From: Pseudomonadota bacterium
GTDB taxonomy: Bacteria; Oederibacteriota; Muellerivitia; Muellerivitales; Muellerivitaceae
DNA length: 64,000 bases
Direction: 5' to 3'
Assembly (NCBI GenBank): GCA_021324075.1
Contig: JAJPJW010000025.1
Coordinates: 43,306-107,305 of the forward strand
Position numbers and translations under genes: made by a program. Numbering within the stretch: the first letter of the stretch is position 1; every line of letters starts with the position of its first letter. Of the stretch, positions 14,311-39,272 are shown piece after piece. The notes beneath the pieces were generated by a model that was not told the origin of the DNA, made no database searches, and was given only the letters and a program-made list of their open reading frames with translations.

Positions 14311-17300
14311 GTTATTGGAAAAAATTGTGATTTCAGACCAATCCGTTCGGGACCAGGTCATCCATGACCACGAAAGCCTCTTCGCGGTGGACGCGGGGGC
14401 GGGAACTGGCAAAACGACGCTCCTGGTGTCCCGGCTCATCTCGCTGCTCCTGGAAAAGCAGGCGCCCTTAAGCCGCATCGCGGCCATCACGTTCACTGAA
14501 AAGGCTGCCGCCGAACTGGCTGAGCGGTTGCGCTCCAAACTCGAAGAGGCTTTGGGGAAACATCCCGAATCCAAAACCCCTATTCCTCAAGCATTGGAGG
14601 ATATGGAGCGAGCTCCCATTTCCACCATCCACTCCTTCTGCGCGGGGCTCTTGCGGGAATACCCGGTGGAGGCGGGGGTGGATCCCCAATTCACCCTTTT
14701 GGACGAGGTTCAATCCGGGGCCTTCGAGGACCAGGCCTGGGACCATTGGCTCAAGAAGAACCTGGCGAAACCGGTCGAACCCATGTTCCAGTTCTTCCGC
14801 TTGGGCGGCACCTTCGAGCATGTGGATGAACTCAAACAGTTTCTAAAGCGCAACCGCACCCTTTTGACTTTGGCCTCCCCCAAACCCCTGCCTTCCGTGA
14901 AATCTTTCCATGCCCAGTTCAGCACCTTCGTGGCCTTAACGAAGCGGGAAGCCGCCCAATGCGCCAAGCATGAAGACACCCTTTATGAAGCCCTCGAATC
15001 CTTTTGGGCCCAATGTGCGACGATTGAGGGATCGGATGCGGGTGACCTGGACTTCGCCTTGGCAAACCTGAAGGTCCCCAAGGTCGGCAACAAGGGCGCC
15101 CAAGGCAATTGGGGGAAAGAACGGTTGGCGGCACTACGCGAGGGGTTCGTGAAGCTGGCGGAGGACCACCAAACGGCCTTCGCTCCCTTCAAAGAGGCGG
15201 TCATCCTGAACCTGGTCCACTGGGTTGGGAGATACTTGGAGGAATGGGAAAGCCAGAAGGCCCAAGGTGGCTTCCTTGACTTCGACGACCTGCTCCTGAA
15301 GACCCGCGACCTCCTGCGGAATTACCCCGAGGCCCGGGAAGAAATAAAGGGCCGGCTCGACTATCTTTTCGTCGATGAGTTCCAGGATACGGACCCGCTC
15401 CAAGTTGAGATCGTCTTCTTCCTCTGTGAAAAAAAGGGACGGCCCGAAAAGGATTGGAAAAAGGTGAAGCTGGAACAAGGGAAGCTTTTTCTCGTCGGTG
15501 ACCCCAAGCAAAGCATCTACCGTTTCCGGCGGGCGGATGTGGCCATCTACGAAGCCACCAAGGAGCGAATTCTGGCCAACGGGGGCAAGGTCGAGGTGCT
15601 CACCGAAAACTTCCGGACCGTAGGCGGGTTGGTGGAATGGGTCAACGGCTTGTTTCCCACCCAATTCGAGGGGACAGGCATCCACTATCACGCCCTCAAT
15701 GCCAGCCGGGCGAAGGGAAAGACCGAAGGAAGCCTGCCCATCCTCTGGGGCTTGAAGATACCGGCGGCGGGGGAAGAAAAGCCCAGCAAGGCCCTCCTCC
15801 GGCAGCTCGAAGCCGAAACCGTGGCGGCCTTCCTCAAAGACCAAGTGCTCGGCGGCGGGTTCACGGTGTCGGACCCCAAACCCCCTTTCGAGAGGCGTCC
15901 GGTGCGCAAGGGCGATATCGCCATCCTTTTCCGGGACCTCTCCAACGACAACGAGGAATTCTGGGAGGAAGCCCTGCGCAAGCGCGACCTGTCCTACCAG
16001 ATCGTCGGCGGCAAGCGTTTCTACAACCGGCCTGAGATCGTGGCCCTTTCCACCCTTTTGACCTGCCTCTCCTCGCCCGCCGACGAGGCGGCCAACGTCG
16101 CGGTGCTTCGCGGGCCTTTGTTTGGCTTCAGCGACGAGCAATTGTTCCTCCACCGCGCCGGGGGTGGAAATTTTCAATTCCTAAATCCTTCAATCTCAAA
16201 AACAGGCACCCCTCACCCTGGCCCTCTCCCGCAAGGGGAGAGGGGAAATATTAAATTGGCTTTTGTTTACTTGAGGAAATGGCACCAAGCCACCCGGACC
16301 CTGGGGGTGTCGGACACCCTGGCCAAGCTCTATGAAAGCACCAACCTGCTCGCGGTCACGGCGGGCCAGCCCCATGGGGAACAACGCGTGGCCAATTTGA
16401 TGAAGGTCTTGGACCAGGCCCGGGACCTGGAGACTTCCCAACATTTCACCTACCGGGCCTTTACCCAGTGGCTCACCACCCAACAAGAGGAAGGGACGAT
16501 GGAAGGCGAAGCGCCGGGTCCCGATTCCTCCGAGGACCGTATCACGCTCATGACCATCCACAAGGCCAAGGGTTTGGAGTTTCCCATCGTCTTCGTGTCG
16601 GGAATCGCCGCCGACCCCAAGGATTCGGGGAGCCTGGTGGATCGCAAGCATTCGGCGGGCGCCTTCAAGGTGGGCAAGGCAGAGCTGGGTTTGCGCACGA
16701 CGAATTACGAGGCCGTACAGAAAGAGGAGGAAACCCAGCGCAAGGCCGAGGACAGCCGCCTGCTTTACGTGGCCGCCACCCGGGCGAGGGATTGCCTACT
16801 CCTGCCGCATTTTCAATTTACCCCAGGGGGCAAGACCCAGAATGAGAGCCTCTTTGCGGGGCCGCTTCTAAAGGCATTGGAAGAAAAAAACGCTCCCACC
16901 CATTGGGCCGAATCAAAAGAAGGTGAAGAACCTTTGAGCGATCCGCCCGCCTGGGTGGTGCCCCTGGACGAAAAACCAGGCAAAGCTTTGGAGGATGAAA
17001 AAACGAAACTGAAAACCGGGCAGGAAGCCCGCAAGAAGAAAATCGAGGAGATGAGGGGGGAACGCCAATTCAAGTCCGTCAGTTCGGTCCTCCATGTGGA
17101 CGAGGACAAGAAAGATCGGGAAGAACGGGTTTTCGAGGAGCCCGAAGCCGCCTCGCCCTGGGGCGGGAAAGACCTGGGGTCCCTCACCCACCTGCTTTTG
17201 GAAAAGGGATGGGACTGGGACGGGGCGACCTTTGAAAAAGGCGCCGCCTTTTACATTGAGAAAATGGGAATGACGCCCGAACAGGCGGCCCAAGCCTTGG

Positions 17301-17620
17301 ACTGGGTGAAAAAAGCCCTCCAGAGCGACCTCCTCCAAAGGGCCAAAAGATCCGGGAAGGCTTTCCGTGAACTGCCGGTTACCGGCCAAAACCCCGATGG
17401 TTCCTTCTTGAACGCCGTCATCGACCTGGCCTTTTTGGAAGGGGACGAATGGGTGGTGGTGGATTACAAGACCGACCGGGACACGGAAAAACTCAAGGAC
17501 AAGTACCGCCAACAACTGGTCTACTACGGCGACCTCCTGACCCGGTTCACCGGGAAGAAAGTCAAAGAAGCCCACCTTTATTTCCTCCGGCACGACCGCG
17601 TGGACCCCGTTTCTCTTTAA
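14285..17620 (+). CDS. addA: AddA-type ATP-dependent helicase/nuclease (UvrD-like helicase plus C-terminal RecB-family nuclease)
   Basis: Walker A AGAGTGKTT; UvrD motifs; C-terminal nuclease VVVDYKTDR. The track start at 14285 is TTG and overlaps the kinase stop. The conserved N-terminus (SDQSVRDQVI...) suggests the real start is TTG 14315 or GTG 14329, where GC content returns to host-like. Confidence 0.75.
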   Translation: MLEIYIQNELLEKIVISDQSVRDQVIHDHESLFAVDAGAGTGKTTLLVSRLISLLLEKQAPLSRIAAITFTEKAAAELAERLRSKLEEALGKHPESKTPIPQALEDMERAPISTIHSFCAGLLREYPVEAGVDPQFTLLDEVQSGAFEDQAWDHWLKKNLAKPVEPMFQFFRLGGTFEHVDELKQFLKRNRTLLTLASPKPLPSVKSFHAQFSTFVALTKREAAQCAKHEDTLYEALESFWAQCATIEGSDAGDLDFALANLKVPKVGNKGAQGNWGKERLAALREGFVKLAEDHQTAFAPFKEAVILNLVHWVGRYLEEWESQKAQGGFLDFDDLLLKTRDLLRNYPEAREEIKGRLDYLFVDEFQDTDPLQVEIVFFLCEKKGRPEKDWKKVKLEQGKLFLVGDPKQSIYRFRRADVAIYEATKERILANGGKVEVLTENFRTVGGLVEWVNGLFPTQFEGTGIHYHALNASRAKGKTEGSLPILWGLKIPAAGEEKPSKALLRQLEAETVAAFLKDQVLGGGFTVSDPKPPFERRPVRKGDIAILFRDLSNDNEEFWEEALRKRDLSYQIVGGKRFYNRPEIVALSTLLTCLSSPADEAANVAVLRGPLFGFSDEQLFLHRAGGGNFQFLNPSISKTGTPHPGPLPQGERGNIKLAFVYLRKWHQATRTLGVSDTLAKLYESTNLLAVTAGQPHGEQRVANLMKVLDQARDLETSQHFTYRAFTQWLTTQQEEGTMEGEAPGPDSSEDRITLMTIHKAKGLEFPIVFVSGIAADPKDSGSLVDRKHSAGAFKVGKAELGLRTTNYEAVQKEEETQRKAEDSRLLYVAATRARDCLLLPHFQFTPGGKTQNESLFAGPLLKALEEKNAPTHWAESKEGEEPLSDPPAWVVPLDEKPGKALEDEKTKLKTGQEARKKKIEEMRGERQFKSVSSVLHVDEDKKDREERVFEEPEAASPWGGKDLGSLTHLLLEKGWDWDGATFEKGAAFYIEKMGMTPEQAAQALDWVKKALQSDLLQRAKRSGKAFRELPVTGQNPDGSFLNAVIDLAFLEGDEWVVVDYKTDRDTEKLKDKYRQQLVYYGDLLTRFTGKKVKEAHLYFLRHDRVDPVSL
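16165..16272 (+). repeat. Family 2-related element (AT-rich arms plus CCCCTCACCCTGGCCCTCTCCC-GCAAG-GGGAGAGGGG) lying in frame inside the addA ORF
   Basis: ~108-bp low-GC patch inside addA translating to GGNFQFLNPSISKTGTPHPGPLPQGERGNIKLAFVYL. Its left half matches 7123-7144 at 19/22. Confidence 0.4.
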
Positions 17621-17650: not shown

Positions 17651-17745
17651 CCCCCTTTGAAAAAGGGGGGAGGGGGGTATTAGCCTTTGTCTGGGCGAAA
17701 TGATAAGTCTAACTCCCTCTTAGTCCCCCTCTTTCAGAGGGGGAG
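17651..17745. repeat. Family 1 repeat, solo copy: G-tract hairpin CCCCCTTTGAAAAAGGGGGGAGGGGGGTATTAGC plus second hairpin CCCCCTCTTTCAGAGGGGGAG
   Basis: Near-identical copies at 24126-24212 and 25596-25630; an inverted copy at 25982-26018. Confidence 0.6.
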
Positions 17746-17776: not shown

Positions 17777-19912
17777 TTAATTATCCAGTCCCCATTGCCC
17801 CATTTCCTTTTGGAGCCAGGCGTTCCCTGGTGAAAGCTTCAGGGCCTTTTGGAAAACGGCCTTGGCCTCCTGCTTTTGCCCCTCGAGCGCCAAGAGCCTC
17901 CCGAACTTCTCGCACAATTCCAGGTCCTGGTAGCTCCGGTCGAAGGAGGCCCGGAAGAGGGGTGAAAACCGGGGCCAATCGGACCCTGCCTCGCCGGGGT
18001 AGAAGGTCGTTTCCCAGGCGTAGTTGTACAAAAGCTTTTCGAAAAAGCACGATTGCAGGAAAGGGTCCGCCGGAACGGAAGGATAGACACGGGCCATGTC
18101 CGCCAAGAGGGGCACCCTTCCTTTGCCGTTCGGGAGGTCCATCGCCTGGAAGTTGAACCTGTGGTAATCCGCGTAAAAAGAATTCCAAGCCAGGAAAAGC
18201 GGGCGGTCCGGGGCGGAAATGGGAAAGACACCCAGGACATAGGGGTTTTGGGCGCCGGATTTGGTCCCCGGAAATTCAATCCAGCGCGCACCGGGGAAAC
18301 GGCTCTTGAGGAAGGGTTCGTAATGGGCCTCGGTAAAAAGGCCGCACCAGGACGCTTTTTCCGGTGAAAGGCCCGGATTCATGGCCGCGTTAAAAGGGAA
18401 GCAATAGAACGAGAGGGAATAATCGTCGACGGCGGGGATCATTTCGGGGAAAACCAATCCGGGCCCGAACCTGGAGGAAAGGGTTTCCAGGACGGCGTAG
18501 CTTTCCTTTTTCTCCCGGACCGTTTCCGTCCCCGGATTTCCGGGAAAGAAAGAACGCCCCAAGTCCAGGCCGCAGGAAATCAGGAGCAGCAGGGCTGCCG
18601 CCCAGGCCCTCCCGCGCGGGGGAAAAACGAAGGCCAGTGCTCGGACCCCCAATGTTGAAACCAGGATGAGCAGGGGCAGGACCAGGAGCACACGGTTGGG
18701 CTCCATGCCGTTGGAAAGGAAGCCCGGCGTCATCAAAATCAACAGGCCCGCCCCCGAAAGAAACAAGGGAAAGCGGTCCCGGGAACGGACCAACTCCATC
18801 ATTCCCAAGAAAAAGAAGGATGCGGAAAAAAGGTTCAGGAACCCGCCGCCATGAAGCGGGCCCTTGGGCCCCAGGTTCCAGAAGAGGGTGTAAAGGTATT
18901 GCAAAATGATCCTGGCCTGGGAGAGGACTGAAAAATTCCTCCAAAACCCGACTTTCATCAAATGGCCCCCATAGCCTTCCTGTCCCGCCGCCACCAGGAA
19001 GGGGACCAGGGCCAAAGCGAAGGAAAGGCCGAACCCGATCCATGGACCCGGGCCCCTCCGGGGCTTGGACCTTAGTTTCCAGGCCGCCAGCCCCAGGACC
19101 ACCGGCACCAGGGCGGGCCAGCAGGGAAAGGTGAAGGGACCCAGTCCCAAGGCAAAACCCAGGAGCCCGCTTTCAACCTGCAGGGAGGAAGAGGGCGGGG
19201 CCTTGAGGAACCACGCCAATAAATAAAGGACCAGGCTTTCCCAAAAAAGCAGGCAGAGGAGGTTCCGGGAGGCCTGTAAGGACCAAAAGTTGAGGGCGAA
19301 CAAGGCCAGGAAAAGCAGGGCGAAGGAGGCGGGAAAGCGCAATCGGACCGCCTGGTAACCCGCCAGCACCGCCCCCAGGGCCAACAAGGTGGCGGGCAAT
19401 TGGTAGGCCCAGAAGGGGGAATGGGTGAGCTTCAGGAAAAACCAGCAAAGGTAACAGCCCGTGCTGGGCGTCTGCCCGAAGGTGACAAACAAGCGCAGGT
19501 TCCAGTGCCGAAGAAGGTCCAGGGCGTATAGACCGGGTTGGATCTCGTCGCCGCCCTGCCACCGGGCGGGGGACCCCAAGCCCCAAAAATAAGCGACGCC
19601 GAGGAGGGGCAGGAAACCCAGCAGGAAAGGGAGCAGGGGCATTTCCACGTCGGTCCCGGCCAGGGGTGACGGCGTTCTTTCGCCGGGCGGCAGGGTTGCG
19701 GCGAAGACGACCAGGGGAAGGGCGAGCCCGAATAAGAGGACGGAAAATTTGGCGGCCAGGGACCAGGAGGTCTCCGCCACAAGGATGTTGGAAAGGGTAA
19801 AAAGAAGGAAATAGGGCCAGGGGTGGTAGGGAAGGTAAAGGTCCGACTGGAAAATTTTTTTCATTTGTTTTCCAACCCCAGGCATTATTGAAAAGAACCG
19901 GGCTTTTTCCAA
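17777..19912 (-). CDS. Polytopic membrane protein with C-terminal TPR-like soluble domain (GT-C-fold glycosyltransferase candidate)
   Basis: More than 10 predicted TM helices, an acidic DE motif in the first loop (GDEIQPGLY), and a C-terminal ~250-aa soluble region ending in TPR-like helices. Confidence 0.4.
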   Translation of the reverse strand: MEKARFFSIMPGVGKQMKKIFQSDLYLPYHPWPYFLLFTLSNILVAETSWSLAAKFSVLLFGLALPLVVFAATLPPGERTPSPLAGTDVEMPLLPFLLGFLPLLGVAYFWGLGSPARWQGGDEIQPGLYALDLLRHWNLRLFVTFGQTPSTGCYLCWFFLKLTHSPFWAYQLPATLLALGAVLAGYQAVRLRFPASFALLFLALFALNFWSLQASRNLLCLLFWESLVLYLLAWFLKAPPSSSLQVESGLLGFALGLGPFTFPCWPALVPVVLGLAAWKLRSKPRRGPGPWIGFGLSFALALVPFLVAAGQEGYGGHLMKVGFWRNFSVLSQARIILQYLYTLFWNLGPKGPLHGGGFLNLFSASFFFLGMMELVRSRDRFPLFLSGAGLLILMTPGFLSNGMEPNRVLLVLPLLILVSTLGVRALAFVFPPRGRAWAAALLLLISCGLDLGRSFFPGNPGTETVREKKESYAVLETLSSRFGPGLVFPEMIPAVDDYSLSFYCFPFNAAMNPGLSPEKASWCGLFTEAHYEPFLKSRFPGARWIEFPGTKSGAQNPYVLGVFPISAPDRPLFLAWNSFYADYHRFNFQAMDLPNGKGRVPLLADMARVYPSVPADPFLQSCFFEKLLYNYAWETTFYPGEAGSDWPRFSPLFRASFDRSYQDLELCEKFGRLLALEGQKQEAKAVFQKALKLSPGNAWLQKEMGQWGLDN

Positions 19913-22869: not shown

Positions 22870-24054
22870 TCAAGCCGCCTTTAAGCCGAAAGCCCTTCGA
22901 ACAGCCAGGTTGGCCGGCGCCTCGAAAAAATGGTAGCAAAGGGCGGCAACCCCCGTCGAGATCAATACGAAGAGGACATAGGCGGTCAAAAGGTCCCCAT
23001 GGGCGATCAAGAGGGGGTAGGAAAAATAAAAAACGAAGATGTGTAGGAGGTAGATTCCGTAACTGTATTTTCCCGGCCAGGCCAGGGGGGCCCAAAAGGC
23101 GGATTGGAAAAAGCGCAAGTGCAGCCCACCCAGCAGCAGTAAAAAGGAGCCCAAAGCCACGCAACTGGCCCCGACAACGTCCTCGGACCGGTGGTCATAG
23201 GTGTCGGTCCCCAGGTAGGCCAAGGCCAGCAAGGCCACCCCCGAAAGGCAGGCCAGCGCGCAGAGGCGGGGGCGGAGGCCCAGGAAGGGCCCGTATTTTT
23301 TGGCCACGAAGTAAAGCAGGGCCCCGAAAGCGATCTGGTCGAAGGACCCGAAAGAACCGAACTTCCCCCATTCGGAATAAGAGGGCGAAAGCCGGCCCAT
23401 GGCGAAGCGCCACAAGGGACCCAGGACCACCATGGCCGATAGGAAGGCCAGGTAGGGCCCCGCCCGGCCCAGGCGTTTCAGGAGTAGGGGATAGAAAATA
23501 TAAAACTGCTCCTCCACCGAAAGGGACCACATCACTCCCCAAGCGACGGCGATGAGCTTGCCGGCGCTCAAGGCGCAGTACCAATTGAAGGAAAAGGTGA
23601 AAAGGGAGGACCAAAAGAGGAAATTAAACTGGCCGGGGTCGGCCAGGAAGCAGTAATTGAACCGCGGCATGGCCCGCGGCAAAAGGTAGGCCGCCGCCAG
23701 GCCCAGGAGGATGGTCAGGAAGAACAGGGGGAAAATACGGGCGACGCGCCGCGCGTAAAAGGTTTTGAACGAGGGCGAAAAAAGCCCCTTCCCCTGGCCG
23801 TCGATCAAACGGGTGATGAGAAAACCCGAGACCACGAAAAAAACCCCGACCCCATAGGCACCGTTTTTTTGGAAGTGGTACCACCACCAACCGTAGGCGG
23901 GATCGGGAGGGGGCACGTAGACAAAATGCGCCGCCATCACCGACAAAATGGAAAAGCTGCGCAACAAATCGACGATCTGCAGCTTAACGGGCGCGGCAGG
24001 TTTGGTTTTTGGCCTTGCTTTGATGGACAGCCTCCCGGAAACACCTGTCATCAT
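22870..24054 (-). CDS. Acyltransferase family 3 (OafA/OpgC-like) membrane protein
   Basis: N-terminal VDLLRSFSILSVMAAHF and FFVVSGFLIT motifs; ~10 TM helices. Paralog of 26998..28173. Confidence 0.7.
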   Translation of the reverse strand: MMTGVSGRLSIKARPKTKPAAPVKLQIVDLLRSFSILSVMAAHFVYVPPPDPAYGWWWYHFQKNGAYGVGVFFVVSGFLITRLIDGQGKGLFSPSFKTFYARRVARIFPLFFLTILLGLAAAYLLPRAMPRFNYCFLADPGQFNFLFWSSLFTFSFNWYCALSAGKLIAVAWGVMWSLSVEEQFYIFYPLLLKRLGRAGPYLAFLSAMVVLGPLWRFAMGRLSPSYSEWGKFGSFGSFDQIAFGALLYFVAKKYGPFLGLRPRLCALACLSGVALLALAYLGTDTYDHRSEDVVGASCVALGSFLLLLGGLHLRFFQSAFWAPLAWPGKYSYGIYLLHIFVFYFSYPLLIAHGDLLTAYVLFVLISTGVAALCYHFFEAPANLAVRRAFGLKAA

Positions 24055-24125: not shown

Positions 24126-24212
24126 CCCCACTTTGAAAAAGGGGGGACAGGGGGGTATTAGCTTTTGCGGTGAGGCTAACTCCCCCCCAATCCCCCTCTT
24201 TCAGAGGGGGAG
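24126..24212. repeat. Family 1 repeat, solo copy
   Basis: CTTTGAAAAAGGGGGGACAGGGGGGTATTAGC ... CTAACTCCCCCCCAATCCCCCTCTTTCAGAGGGGGAGG. Lies between acyltransferase-1 and hpnE. Confidence 0.6.
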
Positions 24213-24217
24213 GAAAA

Positions 24218-25570
24218 TCATCCACCAGATGGAGACACTGCCGGGGTCTGGGGTCCCAGGATTTTTCCGGCGGCCCGGTGGCCCGAGAGGCAGGCGCCTT
24301 CCAGGGTGGCCGGCAGGCCCGTGTCGGTCCAATCCCCGGCCAGGAAGACGTTGGGACAGGGTGTCTCGCAGGGCGGGCGCAGCTTGTCCGTTTCACGGCT
24401 CCAAACGAAGGTGGCGGCCATTTCCCGCGTGGCCTTGGAATGGAGGACCCGGACCCCCCGGGCAGTGGGGCAACGGTCGGACAGTTCCTTCAAGGCCATC
24501 TCCACCAGTTCGGGGTCCTTCAGGCGGGCCAAATCGTCGGCCGCGCTGGCGGTGAAAGAAAGGTACTGGCCGTCCATTTTCAAACCCCAATTGGCGTTGC
24601 GGTTGAAGACCCACTCAAACTTTGCGCCGGAGAGGCCCACCAAGTGCCCCTCGAGGACGGGCTTGGCGAGGATCAGGTGCACGGAAACGATGGAGGACTT
24701 GCCCATTTGGGGGAAATGGGCCGCAGCGTCCCAAGTTCCCACGGGCCACAGGGCCGAAAGGGAGGAGGGCGGCACGGCGAGGACGAGGGCGTCCGCCGAA
24801 TAAAAGGCGCCGGAACGGGCTTTTACCCCCACCGTTTTTCCCTCCACAACGAAGGATTGGACTCCTTCGTGAAAAAGAACCCGGGCCCCTTTTCCTTCCA
24901 TGAATTTTTTCGCCTGGGTGGAAACCACTTCGCTCAAGGGAAGGCGGGCCACCCCCAGGGCGCTGTCCCGGCGGCTGCCGAAGAAAACCCGGCGCAGGAC
25001 CTCGCCCAAGCCTTCGATGGGAGCGACCGGGGGCGGCACATTCATGACGGCGTTGCAAAGCGGGCCCCAGAACCTCTCGCGGACCTTCGGGCCCTGGGCC
25101 GTGGCCTCCAGGTATTGGGCGACCGTTTCAACACCTGGCGGGATCTTGAAGGGTTTGCGGGAAAAAGCCGAGAGGGCGCGGGCCAGGGAGATTTTTTCCC
25201 CCCAAGGAAAGGCGTTGGAAAAGAGCAAGCCCCAGGCCAGGTGCAAGGGCGCGGGCCAGGGGGTGCATTTCAGGGAAACCTCCCTGCCGCCGGGGGTGAG
25301 CCAGGCCAGGGCCAGGGGATCGATCCATTGGAGGTTTTTTTCCACGCCGATGCGGCGGAACAGCCGGAGGGTTTCGGCATAACAGCCCATGAAAAGATGG
25401 GGCCCGTTGTCCATGGGCGCGGGAAAGGTTTCCGAAGGGGCGATGGAATAGGCCCGGCCGCCCAGGAAGCCGCGGGATTCCAACAGGTCCACTGAATGGC
25501 CCGCTTCGGCCAGGGCCGTGGCCGCCGCCAGGCCCGCGTAACCGCCGCCGACCACGATGACTTTGGGCAT
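24218..25570 (-). CDS. hpnE: Hydroxysqualene dehydroxylase (squalene-associated FAD-dependent desaturase)
   Basis: FAD-binding N-terminus VIVVGGGYAGLAAA. Amine-oxidase/desaturase fold. Gene order places it after hpnC and hpnD. Confidence 0.7.
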   Translation of the reverse strand: MPKVIVVGGGYAGLAAATALAEAGHSVDLLESRGFLGGRAYSIAPSETFPAPMDNGPHLFMGCYAETLRLFRRIGVEKNLQWIDPLALAWLTPGGREVSLKCTPWPAPLHLAWGLLFSNAFPWGEKISLARALSAFSRKPFKIPPGVETVAQYLEATAQGPKVRERFWGPLCNAVMNVPPPVAPIEGLGEVLRRVFFGSRRDSALGVARLPLSEVVSTQAKKFMEGKGARVLFHEGVQSFVVEGKTVGVKARSGAFYSADALVLAVPPSSLSALWPVGTWDAAAHFPQMGKSSIVSVHLILAKPVLEGHLVGLSGAKFEWVFNRNANWGLKMDGQYLSFTASAADDLARLKDPELVEMALKELSDRCPTARGVRVLHSKATREMAATFVWSRETDKLRPPCETPCPNVFLAGDWTDTGLPATLEGACLSGHRAAGKILGPQTPAVSPSGG

Positions 25571-25595
25571 TTCAAAATCCTTAAGGAGAAAAAAT

Positions 25596-26018
25596 CCCCC
25601 TTTGAAAAAGGGGGGTAGGGGGGTATTAGCTTTTCACAACCGCCCTTAGTATTTCCTCTAGAACCGCCTCTTTATTTTTCAAAACTTGGTGGTTATCCAA
25701 TCGAAGTACCCTTAAACCCTGGTTCTTGAAAAACGAATCCCGAAGAACATCTTTTTCTTTTACTTCGCCATGAAAATGTTGTCCGCCATCTATTTCAATG
25801 ACCAGAGCGGCCTCACGGCAATAGAAATCCACAATGTAGTTGCCGATGATCCGCTGACGATAAAAACAAGCTCCAGCAATTTGTTTGCGGCGAAGATGGG
25901 ACCAGAGAAGACGTTCGGCATCCGTCATCCCGCGACGGAGTTTTCGGGCAGTTTGTGTTTGATTCCTACGATAAGGCAACAACTAATACCCCCCTTCCCC
26001 CCTTTTTCAAAGGGGGGA
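25596..26018. mobile_element. Small element bounded by ~35-bp inverted copies of the family 1 G-tract repeat and carrying a single DUF559 endonuclease-like gene
   Basis: Left end TCCCCCTTTGAAAAAGGGGGGTAGGGGGGTATTAGC (25596-25630). The right end reverse-complements to CTCCCCCCTTTGAAAAAGGGGGGAAGGGGGTATTAGTTGT (25982-26018). Inserted between hpnD and hpnE. Confidence 0.55.
25626..25982 (-). CDS. DUF559 domain protein (Vsr/restriction-endonuclease-like fold)
   Basis: 118 aa. Conserved DUF559 core RKLRRGMTDAERLLWSHLR...IVDFYC...LVIEIDGGQH. The ORF runs exactly from one terminal repeat to the other. Confidence 0.7.
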   Translation of the reverse strand: MLPYRRNQTQTARKLRRGMTDAERLLWSHLRRKQIAGACFYRQRIIGNYIVDFYCREAALVIEIDGGQHFHGEVKEKDVLRDSFFKNQGLRVLRLDNHQVLKNKEAVLEEILRAVVKS

Positions 26019-26074
26019 GCGGCGTTTTACTGCATCGCTGGTTGTGGAAACACTCCTCGCAATGACATAAAAAA

Positions 26075-26914
26075 CTAATTTGAGGACCATTTCCACAACC
26101 AGCACCTTCCCACCGCGCCCAAGACCGACAAGAGCTTGTCCGCCTTCGAGAGGGTGGTGCGCCCCTTGAGGATGCGGTAGGGGTTCGCCCTCAGCTTCTG
26201 GTAAAGCTTCACGTAAACCGCCGCGATGGCCTCGGCGGTGGCCAGTTGGGCGCGCTGGCGGCGGCTCAAGGCCGTCCTCGCCTTTTCCAGGAAGGACCAG
26301 GCACGGTCCAACTGGAACTCCACGAATTTTTTCCAGTGTGAGTTGTCCTCGTCCAAGTGGGAGGGGTTCAGGTGGAAGCGGTTGAAATCCTCCTCCGGCA
26401 GATACCGGCGGCCCAAGGCGCCGTCCTCCCGGTAGTCGCGGGTGATATTGACCAGTTGGAGGAAGACCCCCAGGTTCTCCGCGTAATCCCGGTGGGCTTG
26501 GTCCTTGAAGCCGAAGATCTCCATGCTGGACAGGCCGGGGCCCCCCGCCACCCGCAGGGCGTATTGGTGGAGCTCGGCGAACTTCTTGAAACGGATGGGC
26601 CTTAGGTCCTGCTCCACGCCCCGGAGGATGCGGTTCAGGGGTTCGCGGGTAAGCCCGAAGGCGGGAATCAGGGCCTGGAGTTTCTGGAAGAGGCCATCCT
26701 TCGCCCGGCCCTGGAAGGCGGCGTCCAGCCCCTGCTTGAACCGGGAAAGCCCCCGGCGCTTGGCAACAGGGGAACCGGGGCTGTCGGCGATCTCATCAGC
26801 CACCCAGCAAAACCGGTAAAGCACTTCCATGGCCCGGCGCTGGCCGCGGGGCAAAAGAAGGAGCGGGTAGTAAAAGCTGGTCTTGTTCTCGAGCGATTGT
26901 TTCGGGGGAGCCAT
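26075..26914 (-). CDS. hpnD: Presqualene diphosphate synthase (squalene/phytoene synthase family)
   Basis: SFYYPLLLLP...AMEVLYRFCWVADEIAD matches the HpnD/CrtB N-terminal signature. Start chosen at the Met 12 aa before SFYY; the track ORF extends to 26959. Confidence 0.7.
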   Translation of the reverse strand: MAPPKQSLENKTSFYYPLLLLPRGQRRAMEVLYRFCWVADEIADSPGSPVAKRRGLSRFKQGLDAAFQGRAKDGLFQKLQALIPAFGLTREPLNRILRGVEQDLRPIRFKKFAELHQYALRVAGGPGLSSMEIFGFKDQAHRDYAENLGVFLQLVNITRDYREDGALGRRYLPEEDFNRFHLNPSHLDEDNSHWKKFVEFQLDRAWSFLEKARTALSRRQRAQLATAEAIAAVYVKLYQKLRANPYRILKGRTTLSKADKLLSVLGAVGRCWLWKWSSN

Positions 26915-26997
26915 CCATTCCGTCCCTTTAGGATGGCTGGATTTTAACAGTCCGCCCATTCCGGAAGGGATAAAAGTCCCGCCGGATCAAGGAAAAG

Positions 26998-28173
26998 TCA
27001 CGCCCGGGCCGCGCCCCGGGACCGCCACCGATCCCAGGCCCCGCGGATCAGTCGGTTGGCGGGCCATTCGAAGAAACGGTAGGAAAGGGAAGCCACCAGG
27101 GTGGTGAGAAGGACCAAGAGGGCGAAGCCGCCGAGGAGGCCCAGGCTTCCTAAAAGGGGCCGGCTGATGAAAAGCACAAGGGGGTGGAGCAGGTAACAGC
27201 CGTAGCAGTACCTGCCGGGGTAAGCCAGGGCCTTCAGCCAGGGTGATTCCCAGAAGGAAAGGGAGAGGCCGCCCATCAGGAAAAGGAAGAGCCCCCCGGC
27301 CAGGACTTCGGGGACGAAAATTTCCTGCAGGGGGTCGTTCTCGCGGGTCCCGAAATAGGCCGACAGGAGGACCAGGGCCCCCGCAAGACAAAGGAGAACG
27401 GCGGTTTTTTTCTTCCGCAAAAGAGAGGGGCCGTAGCGCCGGAAAGCCAGATAAAGCGCGATACCGCAGGCGATCAAGTCGAATTTGGCTGGGGAAGCGT
27501 AGGATTCCACGAAGTCGTTGGAGCCCCTGTGGAAATAAAAATAAGACCTCCAGGCCAATCCGGCCAAAACGACCAGGGCCAAAACCACCCGGAAATTCCG
27601 GGTGTTCCGGATCTTTCCCAGGGCCCAGGGATAAAGCAGGTAAAACTGTTCCTCGATAGCCAGGCTCCAGAGGATCATCCAAGGGACCGAATAGTTCCAA
27701 TCAGGCCGGAAGACCAGAAGCCAGTTGAAGAGGAAGGTGGATGCGCAAAACCAGAACCAGCCATCGTGGTTGCCGCCGGGGGTGAAGAATTGCCGGTAGA
27801 GCGCCGAGGCGGGCGGGGCGAGGAAAAAAACGGCGATTCCCCAGGCGAGGCAAAGCAGGAAAAGGGGCCAGATACGGCCGATGCGGCGCAGGTAAAAGCG
27901 GGGAAGGTCGGGCTTGAAAAGGCCGCCCGCGTCGCGCGCAAGGACGTGGGTGATGAGGAAGCCCGAGACCATGAAAAAAAGGAAGACCCCGTAGAAGCCG
28001 TTGACGCAAAACCGGCCCCAGAGCCAGGCTTTCCAGGGGCTGTCGAAGGGGACGTTGGAGTAATAATGGACGCCCATGACGGCGATCACGCAGGCGCCGC
28101 GCACCAGGTCGATGACCTGCCAAGTGGGGGGAGCAGCCGAATTTTTGCGGGTACTGGAAGGACGGGTGGTCAA
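26998..28173 (-). CDS. Acyltransferase family 3 membrane protein embedded in the hpn operon
   Basis: VIDLVRGACVIAVMGVHYY and FFMVSGFLITH motifs. Probable TTG start at 28173 overlapping the hpnC stop (TTGA). The track ORF extends to 28227. Confidence 0.6.
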   Translation of the reverse strand: MTTRPSSTRKNSAAPPTWQVIDLVRGACVIAVMGVHYYSNVPFDSPWKAWLWGRFCVNGFYGVFLFFMVSGFLITHVLARDAGGLFKPDLPRFYLRRIGRIWPLFLLCLAWGIAVFFLAPPASALYRQFFTPGGNHDGWFWFCASTFLFNWLLVFRPDWNYSVPWMILWSLAIEEQFYLLYPWALGKIRNTRNFRVVLALVVLAGLAWRSYFYFHRGSNDFVESYASPAKFDLIACGIALYLAFRRYGPSLLRKKKTAVLLCLAGALVLLSAYFGTRENDPLQEIFVPEVLAGGLFLFLMGGLSLSFWESPWLKALAYPGRYCYGCYLLHPLVLFISRPLLGSLGLLGGFALLVLLTTLVASLSYRFFEWPANRLIRGAWDRWRSRGAARA

Positions 28174-29042
28174 GAGCCCTTCCCCGGGGGCAGCAAGGCG
28201 GCCAAGAAGACCTGGAACTTGTCCCAAACCCCCAAATGGGGGCGTTGCTCCAGGACCTGGTAGTCCATCCCGCGGATTTTCCCCAGGATCCGGGAACCTC
28301 CCCGGCAGGTGGCTTTCAGCTCCAACTTGAGGCGCCCGGTCACCGCGTCCAAAAGGGGCAGGCCTTTCCGAAAGTAACCTTCGGTGAAATCCACCGCGCT
28401 CCGAACCATCCGGCGCACCGGGGGGGAATCCTGCAAGGCCAACAGGCCTTTCGCCCCCACCCCCGCTTTTTTCAATTCGGCCAGGGGGTAGTAAATCCGG
28501 CCGCGTTTCAAATCGATGGAACTGTCCTGCCAGAAGTTGATGAGCTGCAGGCCGCTGCAGATGAAATCCGAATACCGGTGGAGCTTTTCGTCCCGGATGC
28601 CCGAGATGAGCAGGACCATCCGGCCCACGGGGTTGGCGCTATGGCGGCAATAGTAAAGAAGGGCGTTCCAGGTGGAATAGCGGTGGTTCACCACATCCAT
28701 ACGGTAGGCGCGCAGGAGGTCCAGCGGGAGGGAAAGGGGGATTTGGAAGGTCCGGACCGTATGGGCGAAGGCCATGAGGGCCGCGGGGGCTTTTTTGCCT
28801 TTGAGGGCGTCTTTCAGGCCCCTTTCCCATCGGGCGATCTCCTTAAGCCGCCGGCCCTCATATTTTTCCTCGTCGGCGAAGTCGTCGGCGGTGCGGGCAT
28901 AGGCATAGAGGGCCGCCACATGGGGGCGGGAGACCTTGGGCAGGAGCAGGGAGGCCACCGGAAAATTCTCGTAGTGGCCGAAGGCCTGCCTTTGGCAGTC
29001 CTCATAGGCTTTTTCCAGGTGGGACGGGATGGAGACATCCAT
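28170..29042 (-). CDS. hpnC: Hydroxysqualene synthase (squalene synthase HpnC)
   Basis: HYENFPVASLLLP...ALYAYARTADDFADE is the N-terminal trans-isoprenyl diphosphate synthase head-to-head motif. First gene of the hpnC-D-E set. Confidence 0.7.
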   Translation of the reverse strand: MDVSIPSHLEKAYEDCQRQAFGHYENFPVASLLLPKVSRPHVAALYAYARTADDFADEEKYEGRRLKEIARWERGLKDALKGKKAPAALMAFAHTVRTFQIPLSLPLDLLRAYRMDVVNHRYSTWNALLYYCRHSANPVGRMVLLISGIRDEKLHRYSDFICSGLQLINFWQDSSIDLKRGRIYYPLAELKKAGVGAKGLLALQDSPPVRRMVRSAVDFTEGYFRKGLPLLDAVTGRLKLELKATCRGGSRILGKIRGMDYQVLEQRPHLGVWDKFQVFLAALLPPGKGS

Positions 29043-37302: not shown

Positions 37303-39272
37303 TGAAAGGATTCCTACTATTTCTTTTTTGCTGCCTGTTGCCGCCCAGAACTTGGGCACTCCTTCCCCTGCAAACCTACGAGGACCTGGCGGCGGGGAGC
37401 CCGGCCATGGGTTACCAAGACGGGCCCTTTTATGCGGCCCTTTTTCACGGGCCCCAAGGGCTGGCTTTTAATACCGATGGAACCCTGCTCTACGTCGCCG
37501 ACGGGGAGAACCATTGCATCCGGGTGGTGGACCGGGGCAAGGGCAACCTGGTTTCGACCCTCACCGGCGGCGGAAAAGCGGGCTATGCGGACGGCCCCCT
37601 CGCCGCCGCCCTTTTCAGCCATCCCACCCTCCTGCTTTTCCTGCCCGGCCAGCAGCTCGTCGTTTATGACGAAGGCAATGCCCGGCTGCGGTTGGTCGAC
37701 CTCGCCCAAAAGACCGTGACGACCCTGGCGGGGGACGGCGAGCCGGGATTGAGCGACGGCCCGGGTGCCAAGGCCTCCCTGGGGAACCTCTCGGGCATGG
37801 CTTATCTTCCTTCCCGCGGGGGGGTCTATTTTTCCAGCTTCGGGGCGCTTCGGAAGGTCGACTTTAAAACAGGACAGGTTTCCACGGTTTTCCGCGGCAA
37901 GGCCGAAGTGCCAGCACTTGGGGCCATGACAGTGGACCAGGGCCGGCTTTACCTGGCGGATGGGACATCGGGGCAGGTGTACCAGCTGACACCCAAGGAA
38001 AAATTCGACCGGGAAGATGAAACTTCCTTCGATTGGCAGCCTTTTGCCAAGGGCCAGGCCATCGGCCAAATGGCCTTCTCCGACGGCGTCCTTTACGCCG
38101 TACAGCGCGGCGGCGCCCCCTTCCTGGCGCGGTTGACGCCCCAATACCAGCCTGTCACCTTCGTTTCCCTATGGGGGGACGAGCAGTCCCAAAGCGTCGG
38201 TTCCAACCCCCTGCTGGGGGGCGAGGGGGAGGGAAACCCCTGTTTCCTTGCGCCCGACCCCCTGTCGCCCCGCAAACTCTATTTCTCCCATCCGGGCGCC
38301 AACATGGTCACCTCCTACCGCGATCTTTTCCTGGAGGAGTTCAAGGATTCGGAATCGGAGAACCCGGAGGGATTGACGGATTTCCGTTATCCCACCGCCA
38401 AGCCTCCGGGAACCTTCCGTATCCTGTTGGTCGGGGATTCCCACACCTTCCACCAATATCCCGACGACGTCAAAAAGAGGGGTTGGAACGCCTTCAACCG
38501 GTTCGCCATCCTTCCCAAAAGGGCGGAGGAAACCCTCAACACCTTGGCGGCCCTGCAGGATGTCCCTTGGCATTACGAAGTCCTGCATTACGGGGAAGTT
38601 TCAGGAAATCACCTGAACCTCTGGCCCTATTACGTCGTGCCGAGGCTCGCAAAGAAATTCGATGTGGACCTGGTGGTCATCATGTATTCACCCGATTTCG
38701 ACCTGGGCCCCTTCTATGATTACCCCTATTCGGCCGAGGGCATTCCGGTGGAAAAGCAGGACAACGAGTTTTTGCTCAAACCAGTCGAACAGCGCATCCA
38801 GGGGGGACTGCCCCGCGAACTCTTCGACTATTGCAAGGCCCACGAGCTTGTCAAGGTCATCAATCACCAGGCCCAATTCGCCCCCTTTGACAGGATCTCC
38901 GGGGACCCCCAGGCCGCGGAGAAATTGATCCAGTTGACCGCGCGGCCCCTGAAGTTATTGGACGAGAAATTAAACGGGATGAAAACCAGCACCGGGGCAC
39001 CCGTCCGGCTGGAAATGGTCCGCTTCCCCTTGGGCCGATTTCCAGGTCCCTATGAAGGAGACCAGGCTTATTGGGGGAAATATATGAAAGAGATCAACGC
39101 GCCCCTGTTGGATTTGACTGCCGCCATGAGCATATTGCGGTTCAGCTATTACCCCCTTTCCCAAGTGGGGGGCTACGACCACTTCAACGCGGACGGGCAT
39201 CTGTTGATGGGTTTCCTGCTGGCGGAAGAGCTGATCCGTGAAAAGCTCATTCCTTTTGAACCGGCAAAATAA
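37302..39272 (+). CDS. Secreted NHL beta-propeller plus SGNH/AlgX-like O-acyltransferase/esterase candidate (paralog 2; motifs intact)
   Basis: Signal peptide MKGFLLFLFCCLL. NHL units (LYVADGENHCIRVV). C-terminal FRILLVGDSHT (GDSH block I) and YDHFNADGHLL (D-x-H). Ends LIPFEPAK, like paralog 1. Confidence 0.6.
   Translation: MKGFLLFLFCCLLPPRTWALLPLQTYEDLAAGSPAMGYQDGPFYAALFHGPQGLAFNTDGTLLYVADGENHCIRVVDRGKGNLVSTLTGGGKAGYADGPLAAALFSHPTLLLFLPGQQLVVYDEGNARLRLVDLAQKTVTTLAGDGEPGLSDGPGAKASLGNLSGMAYLPSRGGVYFSSFGALRKVDFKTGQVSTVFRGKAEVPALGAMTVDQGRLYLADGTSGQVYQLTPKEKFDREDETSFDWQPFAKGQAIGQMAFSDGVLYAVQRGGAPFLARLTPQYQPVTFVSLWGDEQSQSVGSNPLLGGEGEGNPCFLAPDPLSPRKLYFSHPGANMVTSYRDLFLEEFKDSESENPEGLTDFRYPTAKPPGTFRILLVGDSHTFHQYPDDVKKRGWNAFNRFAILPKRAEETLNTLAALQDVPWHYEVLHYGEVSGNHLNLWPYYVVPRLAKKFDVDLVVIMYSPDFDLGPFYDYPYSAEGIPVEKQDNEFLLKPVEQRIQGGLPRELFDYCKAHELVKVINHQAQFAPFDRISGDPQAAEKLIQLTARPLKLLDEKLNGMKTSTGAPVRLEMVRFPLGRFPGPYEGDQAYWGKYMKEINAPLLDLTAAMSILRFSYYPLSQVGGYDHFNADGHLLMGFLLAEELIREKLIPFEPAK

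Follow-up and report, generated by a model that had tools for sequence, protein, structure and literature searches.

A DUF559 nuclease gene framed by inverted hairpin arms at an hpnD/hpnE junction: a candidate selfish cassette

A DUF559 gene inserted between hpnD and hpnE

The subject of this analysis is a small gene of the DUF559 family, located on the minus strand between hpnD and hpnE in a stretch of 64,000 nucleotides (hereafter, the window) from GenBank assembly GCA_021324075.1 (contig JAJPJW010000025.1, positions 43,306 to 107,305), and framed by two inverted repeats, which we will call arms (Table 1). Its open reading frame (ORF), 118 amino acids (aa) long, matches the Pfam DUF559 model (PF04480; E = 3e-36, 108 of 109 model positions covered) and, at the domain level, the NCBIfam YcjD model. 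The left arm reads CCCCCTTTGAAAAAGGGGGG TA GGGGGGTATTAG, and the right arm is its reverse complement, with TA changed to AA; an inverted-repeat search extends the pair to 39 nt, with 92% complementarity and 343 nt between the arms. This space is filled exactly by the ORF, the TAA stop codon of which lies inside the TATTAG of the left arm, while in the right arm, read along its minus strand, an in-frame TAG immediately precedes the TTG start. The exact framing of a 118-aa ORF by inverted arms, claimed in an initial annotation made from the letters of the window, is thereby confirmed, the arms measuring 34-35 nt.

In the source annotation, a JGI soil metagenome record, the call for this ORF is limited to its last 100 aa, but the TTG start of the longer form is supported because its N-terminal 18 aa are conserved in homologs. 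Mis-called DUF559 ORFs were encountered elsewhere as well, either truncated, as here, or extended through the arms as 'PPF.KGG' tails. In the right arm, 6 nt separate the end of the second G-run from the start codon, and this run may serve as a Shine-Dalgarno surrogate. A promoter scan of the region around the unit found no promoter-like site, and the same scan returned one terminator-like match, within shuffle expectation. Rfam searches of the whole window (gathering scores) and of 17.4-26.3 kb (E-value mode) revealed no known RNA family, only chance miRNA-like hairpins far below threshold, and PADLOC and PHROGs gave only weak domain-level matches (DpdF region, HNH-labelled phrog), with neither a defence system nor a phage family assigned.

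To our knowledge, DUF559 is a large family without an assigned function, for one member of which a structure has been solved. Among 31 diverse homologs, residues E63, D65 and H69 of the protein of the window show no variation, and D52 almost none. Its closest solved sequence relative is that same structure, PDB 3HRL, an uncharacterised N. gonorrhoeae protein (E = 7e-20). The AlphaFold2 (AF2) model, with a predicted local distance difference test score (pLDDT) of 84.8, has a Vsr-type nuclease fold and matches, in order, 3HRL, the catalytic domain of the homing endonuclease I-Bth0305I (PDB 3R3P; Foldseek E = 1.5e-4, TM 0.79 normalised to target), then the nuclease domains of AbaSI/PvuRts1I, and Vsr. 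Judging from the conserved catalytic residues and a ratio of nonsynonymous to synonymous substitution rates (dN/dS) of 0.14, the gene looks functional. JGI annotations label homologs 'very-short-patch-repair endonuclease'; a role as a Vsr repair enzyme is nevertheless unlikely, because no Dcm-type cytosine methyltransferase gene is found among the genes examined from 22.9 to 29.0 kb (hpnC, hpnD, hpnE, and two acyltransferases). The Pfam scan of the ORF returned DUF559, MTES_1575 and DUF2726 only, without the HUH Y1 domain of REP-associated tyrosine transposases (RAYTs; REP, repetitive extragenic palindromic), and no classical transposase is present in the unit, of which the DUF559 gene is the only ORF.

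The neighbouring hpnE gene (24218-25570, minus strand; TIGR03467, E = 5e-115) begins 25 nt past the arm, and an hpnD-like gene (26075-26959) and hpnC (28170-29042) lie upstream of the DUF559 gene on the same strand. Loci from this and the other searches are cited by number below; for the hpn region, relatives were fetched with HpnE homologs. In two of them (L129, HpnE 82% identical; L131, 72%), the stop codon of hpnD overlaps the start of hpnE (..TGGAAATGGACGGGCGGCTGATGGGAAAAGTG..) and no arms are present at the site, whereas the window carries about 516 nt (25571-26086) in place of about 11 nt. Because hpnD overlaps hpnE in these relatives, the block of about 516 bp is an insertion, and the landing between hpnD and hpnE, 25 nt from the hpnE start, that the initial annotation had proposed is thus verified by comparison with empty sites. 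Read in order, the inserted block starts with a new hpnD tail and its stop codon, after which come a leader of 57 nt, the 5' arm, the DUF559 gene, the 3' arm and, lastly, a trailer of 25 nt that supplies a new AAGGA ribosome-binding site. A third relative (L117; HpnE 84% identical, DUF559 81%) holds the same insertion with the same TTG start, so that the orthologous site is occupied in the window and L117 and empty in L129 and L131. Between the two orthologs, the synonymous rate (dS) is 0.86 at the above dN/dS of 0.14, indicating purifying selection. The sharing with the L117 lineage and these values show that the insertion is old, not recent, and that the gene has been kept intact for long.

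As for the host, the hpnD/hpnE overlap has been broken, and a hairpin with a T-run, by consensus match only, now stands ahead of hpnE; an effect on hopanoid synthesis is purely hypothetical. A 22-nt inverted repeat (26037-26058/26082-26103, 86% complementary) pairs the last hpnD codons with part of the leader that came with the insertion (GCTGGTTGTGGAAA..); only a portion of this repeat is kept in L117, and it could be an insertion footprint or an RNA hairpin. Two Acyl_transf_3 genes (22870-24054 and 26998-28227, both on the minus strand) also lie inside the hpn cluster. In L117 and L129, hpnC and hpnD are adjacent, and hpnE is directly followed by a PMT_2-type gene; the interleaved Acyl_transf_3 genes of the window, set against this order, indicate that the cluster has been invaded more than once.

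Table 1. Coordinates of the inserted unit and of the gene-less arm pairs in the window
Feature	Position	Strand	Description
Gene-less pair 1	17651-17743	+	G-arm 17651-17683, spacer, C-arm 17709-17743 (hairpin CCCCCTCTTTCAGAGGGGG)
Gene-less pair 2	24126-24210	+	G-arm 24126-24161, 14-nt spacer, C-arm 24176-24210; 7 nt downstream of the hpnE stop codon
Trailer	25571-25595	-	25 nt between arm and hpnE ATG; T-run immediately following the hairpin of the arm (matches a terminator-like consensus); AAGGA as hpnE ribosome-binding site
Left arm	25596-25629	+	C-stem CCCCCTTT, loop GAA, G-stem AAAGGGGG(G), loop TA, mirror strand GGGGGGTAT, followed by TAG; the arm includes the stop codon of DUF559
DUF559 nuclease gene (Vsr-fold PD-(D/E)XK)	25626-25982	-	118 aa; TTG start at 25982, TAA stop at 25626-25628
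Right arm, at gene 5' end	25983-26017	-	Minus strand reads CCCCCCTTTGAAAAAGGGGGG AA GGGGGGTATTAG, then TTG start
Upstream inserted part	26018-26086	-	57-nt leader 26018-26074 and new 12-nt hpnD tail/stop 26075-26086 (TCCTCAAATTAG on minus strand); both absent at the empty L129 and L131 junctions, with L117 also compared

Gene-less arm pairs and the arm-gene-arm design across phyla

Arms also occur in the window without the gene. A 19-nt hairpin pattern has 9 matches with up to three mismatches, against 0.2 expected, a G-tract/TATTAG pattern has 4 against 0 expected, and a general arm scan returned three loci, all intergenic, plus one weak match (38207-38229) without a hairpin stem. Besides the DUF559 unit, these are the two gene-less pairs, which had been described as solo two-hairpin units; they are real, with a right arm of a diverged type (CTAACTCCCCC..CCCCCTCTTTCAGAGGGGG) in both. 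Short units combine h1 (TTTGAAAAA) with h2 (CTCTTTCAGAG), that is, they are inverted pairs of two motif types. Pair 1 lies between convergent genes for a helicase-nuclease (14285-17620, plus strand) and a PMT_2-type protein (17777-19912, minus strand), and pair 2 between hpnE and one of the Acyl_transf_3 genes. Folded as single-stranded DNA with ViennaRNA, which models hairpins only, the left-arm hairpin has a predicted energy of -7.9 kcal/mol, and the pairs each form three stems (z = -3.9 for pair 1, -5.1 for pair 2).

A scan of a genome collection with the pattern GGGGGG N1-3 GGGGGGTATTAG, the counts of which are lower bounds and from which poly-G matches were set aside as irrelevant, found many copies in six metagenome-assembled genomes (MAGs) of candidate division FCPU426. 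The FCPU426 loci sampled hold at least 41 gene-less pairs and at least 6 gene-carrying copies, the two pairs of the window being counted separately. Among the 113 listed 8-kb loci with the arm pattern, the DUF559 hidden Markov model (HMM) has five matches, all in FCPU426 (L010, L108, L087, L043 and the frameshifted L096) and each abutting an arm; L037 shows the same gene-arm junction by eye, the end of the locus cutting it before HMM scoring. All DUF559 genes detected in the listed FCPU426 loci and in the window have the repeat on both sides, L087 being without the second G-tract on the 5' side. One genome, MFD01223.bin.2.21, has at least four gene-carrying copies at different loci. The gene-carrying units read hairpin-ATA-GGGGGGTATTCG-ATG ... 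GGC-TAA-TACCCCCC-TT-hairpin, and among paralogous copies conservation continues past the arms for about 20 nt on the 5' side and about 35 nt on the 3' side, where no outer inverted repeat is obvious. Short and full units have an identical left arm, but the right-arm type differs between them.

Several further observations concern these repeats. Gene-less pairs of FCPU426 are centred in at least three different longer palindromes (CTTTGGCAAATTCTAAAAG.., CATGCCTATCCGCAAAGCGCA.., GGAACTATGCACTTAACAAACCC..; e.g. L003, L006, L032; L014, L095; L034, L055), giving nested or composite repeats, and this nesting, like the differing second arm, complicates a simple origin of short units as miniature inverted-repeat transposable elements (MITEs) by deletion. 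Other short insertions are found just 5' of the GAA loop of arm hairpins, e.g. CCCCATTT[TCATTTTT..AAATGAAGAAATGGGGGT]GAAAAAGGGGGG, and h2 can be split by TGCTGTTCCTCATAT..GAGAACAGCATAGTGCTTTAGCAC (L011, L024, L082, L088, L103, L105; L012, L081, L091); further elements may target the loops of these hairpins. L043 and L096, on one contig (CAWHOE010000062.1), are two DUF559 units with similar flanks, one of which, together with its flanking gene, carries many frameshifts: either a decaying segmental duplicate or an assembly error. The 8-kb loci with the arm pattern outside FCPU426, from Nostoc (L029, L048, L065, L074, L111), Planctomycetes (L013, L036), Magasanikbacteria and Collinsella, hold no DUF559 gene, and neither do L018 and L033. 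In the Nostoc, Planctomycetes, L018 and L033 loci, hairpin, G-tract and TATTAG are near-identical to the window arm, despite unrelated phyla.

The generality of the design was assessed in a flank-unbiased sample of 80 metagenome loci, fetched by two internal peptide motifs only, 49-63% identical to the query and including a few near-duplicates. A G-arm (hairpin and G-tract) ends 0-30 nt upstream of the start in 47 of them, a C-arm (C-tract and hairpin) begins 0-30 nt past the end of the protein match in 48, and both are present in 37 of the 72 loci with enough flank. Most frequent is the arrangement G-(3..27 nt)-GENE-(2..31 nt)-C. More than 600 nt from the gene, the arm motif occurs at a background of 0.26 per kb, and none of 1440 shuffled upstream windows contained it; shuffles and background density exclude a chance framing of DUF559 by arms. 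As grounds for rejecting its reading, the initial annotation had named a ubiquitous intergenic repeat with no preference for DUF559, and this holds by half. The repeat is indeed abundant, intergenic and mostly without a DUF559 gene; in the opposite direction, however, a DUF559 gene of this subfamily typically has the repeat on its flanks.

The same kind of arms flanks DUF559 genes in Thermodesulfobacteriota (L120), in a Hypogeohydataceae MAG (L121) and at a type I-C CRISPR locus (L123), and in the MAG of L115 the unit lies between cytochrome P460-type and aldo-keto reductase genes. Distant homologs in IMG/VR contigs (L215, L220) have proteobacterial-type arms (CCTTCTCCC/GGGAGAAGG/GG(A/T)TGAGGG), and among isolates, triplex-type motifs in a varying arrangement stand beside the gene in Picosynechococcus PCC 7002 (pAQ6), Deinococcus proteolyticus, Azospirillum lipoferum and N. 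gonorrhoeae. At L138, an array of gene-less pairs carries the same two arm types as the local gene copy, and the gene-carrying unit equals a short unit, both arm types being identical, in which the 11-nt centre is swapped for the gene and short leaders. It looks like a pair with a gene in its centre, which would fit homing and deletion alike. The whole family counts 24,537 representatives of 50%-identity clusters (E<=1e-3). Many loci come from MAGs and, since some of these may be long-read assemblies, G-run lengths could carry homopolymer errors.

Some features of individual loci deserve mention. In 19 contigs from several sources (L123-L128), a DUF559 cassette is found between cas4 and cas1 of type I-C CRISPR-Cas; the cas4 ORF reads through the arm and the DUF559 ORF overlaps the cas1 start. 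Arms or half-arms are tandemly amplified beside DUF559 in L196 (1250-2330, 5-6 copies of a unit of about 45 nt or of 29 nt) and in L138 (1860-2900, a longer composite repeat), in a manner resembling bacterial interspersed mosaic elements. Many homologs sit on contigs of just 0.5-1.5 kb, which may reflect assembly breaks at repeats.

Inverted arms around a gene raise the question of an invertible switch, in which they would serve to flip the DUF559 segment. In a survey of predicted programmed-inversion targets, the label 'DUF559 domain-containing protein' was enriched with an odds ratio of 14, and 'endonuclease domain-containing protein' likewise (Milman et al. 2023, PMC9881135), probably as a by-product of the inverted arms. 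No recombinase gene lies next to the unit in the window, and the gene is co-oriented with its neighbours at most loci (53 of 65 upstream and 49 of 57 downstream ORFs, by crude ORF calling). Since symmetric arms leave the same pattern after flipping, inversion cannot explain the arm-gene-arm arrangement, and we regard a switch as very improbable.

Arm symmetry and the ycjD locus of E. coli

Repeats of the BoxC/PIT/TMECO type, which are intrastrand-triplex motifs (PIT, potential intrastrand triplex), have been catalogued since the 1990s, and thousands are known across proteobacteria and cyanobacteria. Judged by their letters, the arms of the window have the layout of this class, namely C-stem, loop, G-stem, short loop and a mirroring purine strand (class II purine motif), an assignment to a triplex-type class that goes beyond the initial annotation. 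Each consists of a hairpin, clamped by GC and with A/T at its base, and after it a G-rich strand in which the stem's purine half is mirrored (AAAGGGGG, then GGGGGATT). Over 166 arms and 1361 stem positions, 98% are mirror-compatible (G.G:C, A.A:T or T.A:T triads), and the third strand is A or T at 461 of 463 stem A positions. In a test not conditioned on the third strand, a mirror strand followed 104 of 132 purine-half hairpins, compared with 0 in the 5'-side control. Furthermore, interruptions of the tracts covary three ways, as in CCCCTCTTT/AAAGAGGGG/GGGGAGATT, CCCTCCTTT/AAAGGAGGG/GGGAGGATT and CCTCCCTTT/AAAGGGAGG/GGAGGGATT, and the arms of the short units in the window do likewise (CCCCCTCT/AGAGGGGG/GGGGGAGT). 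The TMECO consensus, CCCTCNCCC N3-6 GGGNGAGGG N3 GGGNGAGGG, is not matched by the window arms (stem C5-6 T3); because the stem sequence differs, these belong to the same motif class, not to the E. coli family.

In E. coli MG1655, the TMECO family has 23 copies, five sites being inverted A+B pairs, and 3610 copies were counted in 262 proteobacterial genomes, G/C-rich triplex motifs in general being very abundant in cyanobacteria (Holder et al. 2015, PMC4666352). The E. coli motif forms a triplex in vitro, and local genome instability has been linked to such motifs; activities giving genetic mobility were never found near them (PMC4666352). A simpler account would see the arms as ordinary REP-like regulatory hairpins, terminators or mRNA stabilisers, next to which DUF559 is incidental. 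The 3'-side arm hairpin with its T-run matches the terminator consensus and the repeats mostly lack the gene, yet an incidental neighbour does not accord with arms within 30 nt at 47 and 48 of 80 flank-independent loci, with 0 of 1440 shuffles, and with an association that persists across different arm sequence types. Moreover, a terminator needs no mirror third strand, and earlier work cited by Holder et al. found PIT elements to be without promoter or terminator activity (PMC4666352). This account, already disfavoured, appears to us scarcely credible.

The E. coli DUF559 gene is ycjD, the stop codon of which overlaps a degenerate arm hairpin, and TMECO no. 9 of Holder Table 1 (1,351,239-1,351,204; PMC4666352) lies about 170 nt downstream of it. 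Between the two, in K-12 (NC_000913 1351040-1351410; L213), there is a decayed second ycjD 3' end together with an arm that is decayed too, and the locus may once have held tandem cassettes. The gene is present in 3378 of 5426 complete genomes, and the 36-nt TMECO sequence in 5408, where it occupies up to 29 places (median 15). The ycjD gene has been reported from phylogroups A, B1 and C and from ST69 and ST182, whereas the remaining lineages examined carry eefRABCD there (PMC12817139). TMECO counts in example strains are 25 in IAI1, 26 in O111, 17 in K-12, 12 in O157:H7 and 1 in ST131. Such a relation between ycjD and TMECO number is compatible with a link but, being confounded by phylogeny, only suggestive.

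Possible modes of spread and comparison with known systems

Taken together, we consider that the insertion at 25571-26086 is probably an old copy of a promoter-less, nuclease-driven selfish cassette, with the arms as its cognate sites and with abundant gene-less relatives. The gene-plus-repeat design recurs across many bacterial phyla, and for this reason the DUF559 nuclease may spread the repeats. We infer that the protein would recognise the arms that frame its gene, be it in duplex form as half-sites or as single strands that become exposed in replication or repair and fold, and would nick or cut there; host repair or replication would then copy the unit, plus gene-less pairs in trans, to new intergenic sites. 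The relation would be analogous to that of RAYT and REPIN, or of an autonomous element and its MITEs, and the gene would be expressed by read-through from the host operon. Transposition-like spread, homing into pairs and RAYT-like maintenance are all conceivable as the way in which copies are generated or kept. The initial annotation had spoken of a compact selfish element: the recurrence of the arm-gene-arm unit in FCPU426 and in distant phyla, and gene-less pairs that share its termini and outnumber the gene copies, agree with it, but neither a target-site duplication nor a classical transposase was found, and the short units, there taken for miniature derivatives, may equally be landing sites of the gene-carrying ones.

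Several points weigh against a selfish cassette. Neither the hpnD/hpnE junction nor a comparison of paralogous FCPU426 copies shows a target-site duplication or a defined cleavage site, although the junctions have diverged. The protein is a lone Vsr-fold nuclease without evident strand-transfer activity, and we know of no such nuclease acting as a transposase. Because the right-arm type differs, the short units of FCPU426 did not arise recently by deletion from the local gene-carrying units. The arm topology varies, with C-arm, gene and G-arm in Deinococcus and direct repeats in Neisseria. Adjacent bacterial genes are co-oriented in about 70% of cases by our own estimate, and the co-orientation seen here is only modestly higher. 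Few members of the family are met on plasmids (34 of 72,556 records) or among viral contigs (14 relatives), and the idea of a phage or plasmid vector was rejected for the same rarity. The hpn copy, long immobile at a dS of 0.86 yet intact, would fit a retained function as well as selfishness. Finally, Holder et al. did not find the E. coli motif to form a triplex in vivo (PMC4666352).

In a homing variant, the arm pairs would spread otherwise, and DUF559, as a free-standing homing endonuclease gene, would cut gene-less pairs at their centre and be copied in during repair, for which the arms would provide the homology. The fold match to I-Bth0305I, the closest after 3HRL, is in keeping with this, as are the L138 unit, the identical left arm of short and full units in FCPU426, and the inverted arms, which would suit a homodimer. 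However, the empty hpnD/hpnE sites carry no arm pair, so that the arms came with the gene or earlier without trace, and the absence of the whole unit from these relatives disfavours simple homing at this site. The differing right arm in FCPU426 also speaks against it, and arms of about 35 nt are short as repair homology. Homing endonuclease genes follow a cycle of gain and decay, for which long retention under purifying selection is atypical. On balance, we find the homing variant unlikely.

Alternatively, DUF559 could be a host nuclease kept vertically, as proposed for RAYTs, which maintains or processes triplex or hairpin repeats, for example by resolving replication blocks, and is not selfish. 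The dN/dS of 0.14 over a dS of 0.86 at a fixed site accords with this, the motifs are linked to local genome instability (PMC4666352), and TMECO counts are highest in the example lineages with ycjD (K-12, IAI1, O111) and about 1 in ST131, with eefRABCD at the ycjD site. O157:H7, on the other hand, has 12 TMECO copies although ST11 carries eefRABCD there. Neither the four or more copies at different loci of MFD01223.bin.2.21, nor those inserted in operons as unrelated as hpn and cas4-cas1, nor decayed copies such as the frameshifted L096 and the ycjD 3' remnant of K-12 are readily accommodated, and a domesticated partner seems to us doubtful.

Returning to the selfish cassette, the repeat class and the protein family were each already known; neither the link between them nor the cassette design came up in a literature search with limited coverage of subscription journals, which found no paper linking DUF559 to these repeats. 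This specific, position-fixed and cross-phylum link offers a candidate function for DUF559 and for BoxC/PIT/TMECO alike. Tentatively, and with somewhat less than even confidence, we propose that DUF559 proteins are the missing protein partner of these repeats, that is, structure- or sequence-specific nucleases that would recognise the hairpin-plus-mirror-strand arm and drive repeat spread, tandem amplification and local instability. The units are seen to split operons (hpnD/hpnE here, cas4/cas1 in L123). If true, our proposal would define a new class of nuclease-only mobile elements in many bacterial phyla, and E. coli YcjD, with 15-29 TMECO copies, would offer a ready test system, making the question amenable to bench work in K-12.

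Among known systems, the Vsr very-short-patch repair endonuclease shares the fold, but with a Foldseek E of 0.11 and 18% identity only; the DUF559 protein has about 118 aa, and no partner methyltransferase gene accompanies it in the 22.9-29.0 kb examined. Vsr-fold homing endonucleases of the EDxHD family (I-Bth0305I, 3R3P) share the catalytic-domain fold and the logic of a selfish gene. Unlike them, the DUF559 gene is intergenic (hpnD/hpnE), outside any intron or intein, has inverted arms and gene-less relatives, and encodes the motif E-x-D-G-G-Q-H.

MITEs and their autonomous insertion sequences (e.g. Correia, ERIC-type) resemble the cassette in their terminal inverted repeats, in short gene-less copies sharing termini with a longer coding copy, and in their intergenic or in-operon sites. 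When the termini of long and short copies are compared, both arms are identical in L138, whereas in FCPU426 one is identical and the other diverged. MITEs and their partners differ from the cassette in that no DDE, serine or tyrosine transposase was found here, nor a target-site duplication at the diverged junctions. The REP/REPIN-RAYT system likewise has a nuclease gene flanked by its own hairpin repeats, inverted doublets far outnumbering the gene, and purifying selection on the gene. There, the enzyme is an HUH Y1 transposase, compared with a Vsr-fold PD-(D/E)XK nuclease here; in addition, DUF559 arms have a third mirror strand, and one genome holds several gene copies.

The closest parallel to the arms themselves is found in the BoxC/PIT/TMECO repeats, abundant in cyanobacteria and enterobacteria, which have the same succession of C-stem, 3-6 nt loop, G-stem, short loop and a further G-strand that mirrors the earlier one (Bachellier et al.; Hoyne and Maher 2000; Holder et al. 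2015, PMC4666352). They too are intergenic and multi-copy, and often form inverted pairs of two types (A and B in E. coli, h1 and h2 here). The sequences differ, CCCCCTTT/AAAGGGGG/GGGGG(A/T)(A/T)T here against CCCTCNCCC/GGGNGAGGG/GGGNGAGGG there, and whereas the literature gives these repeats no associated protein or mobility function, a DUF559 gene stands between the arms described here.

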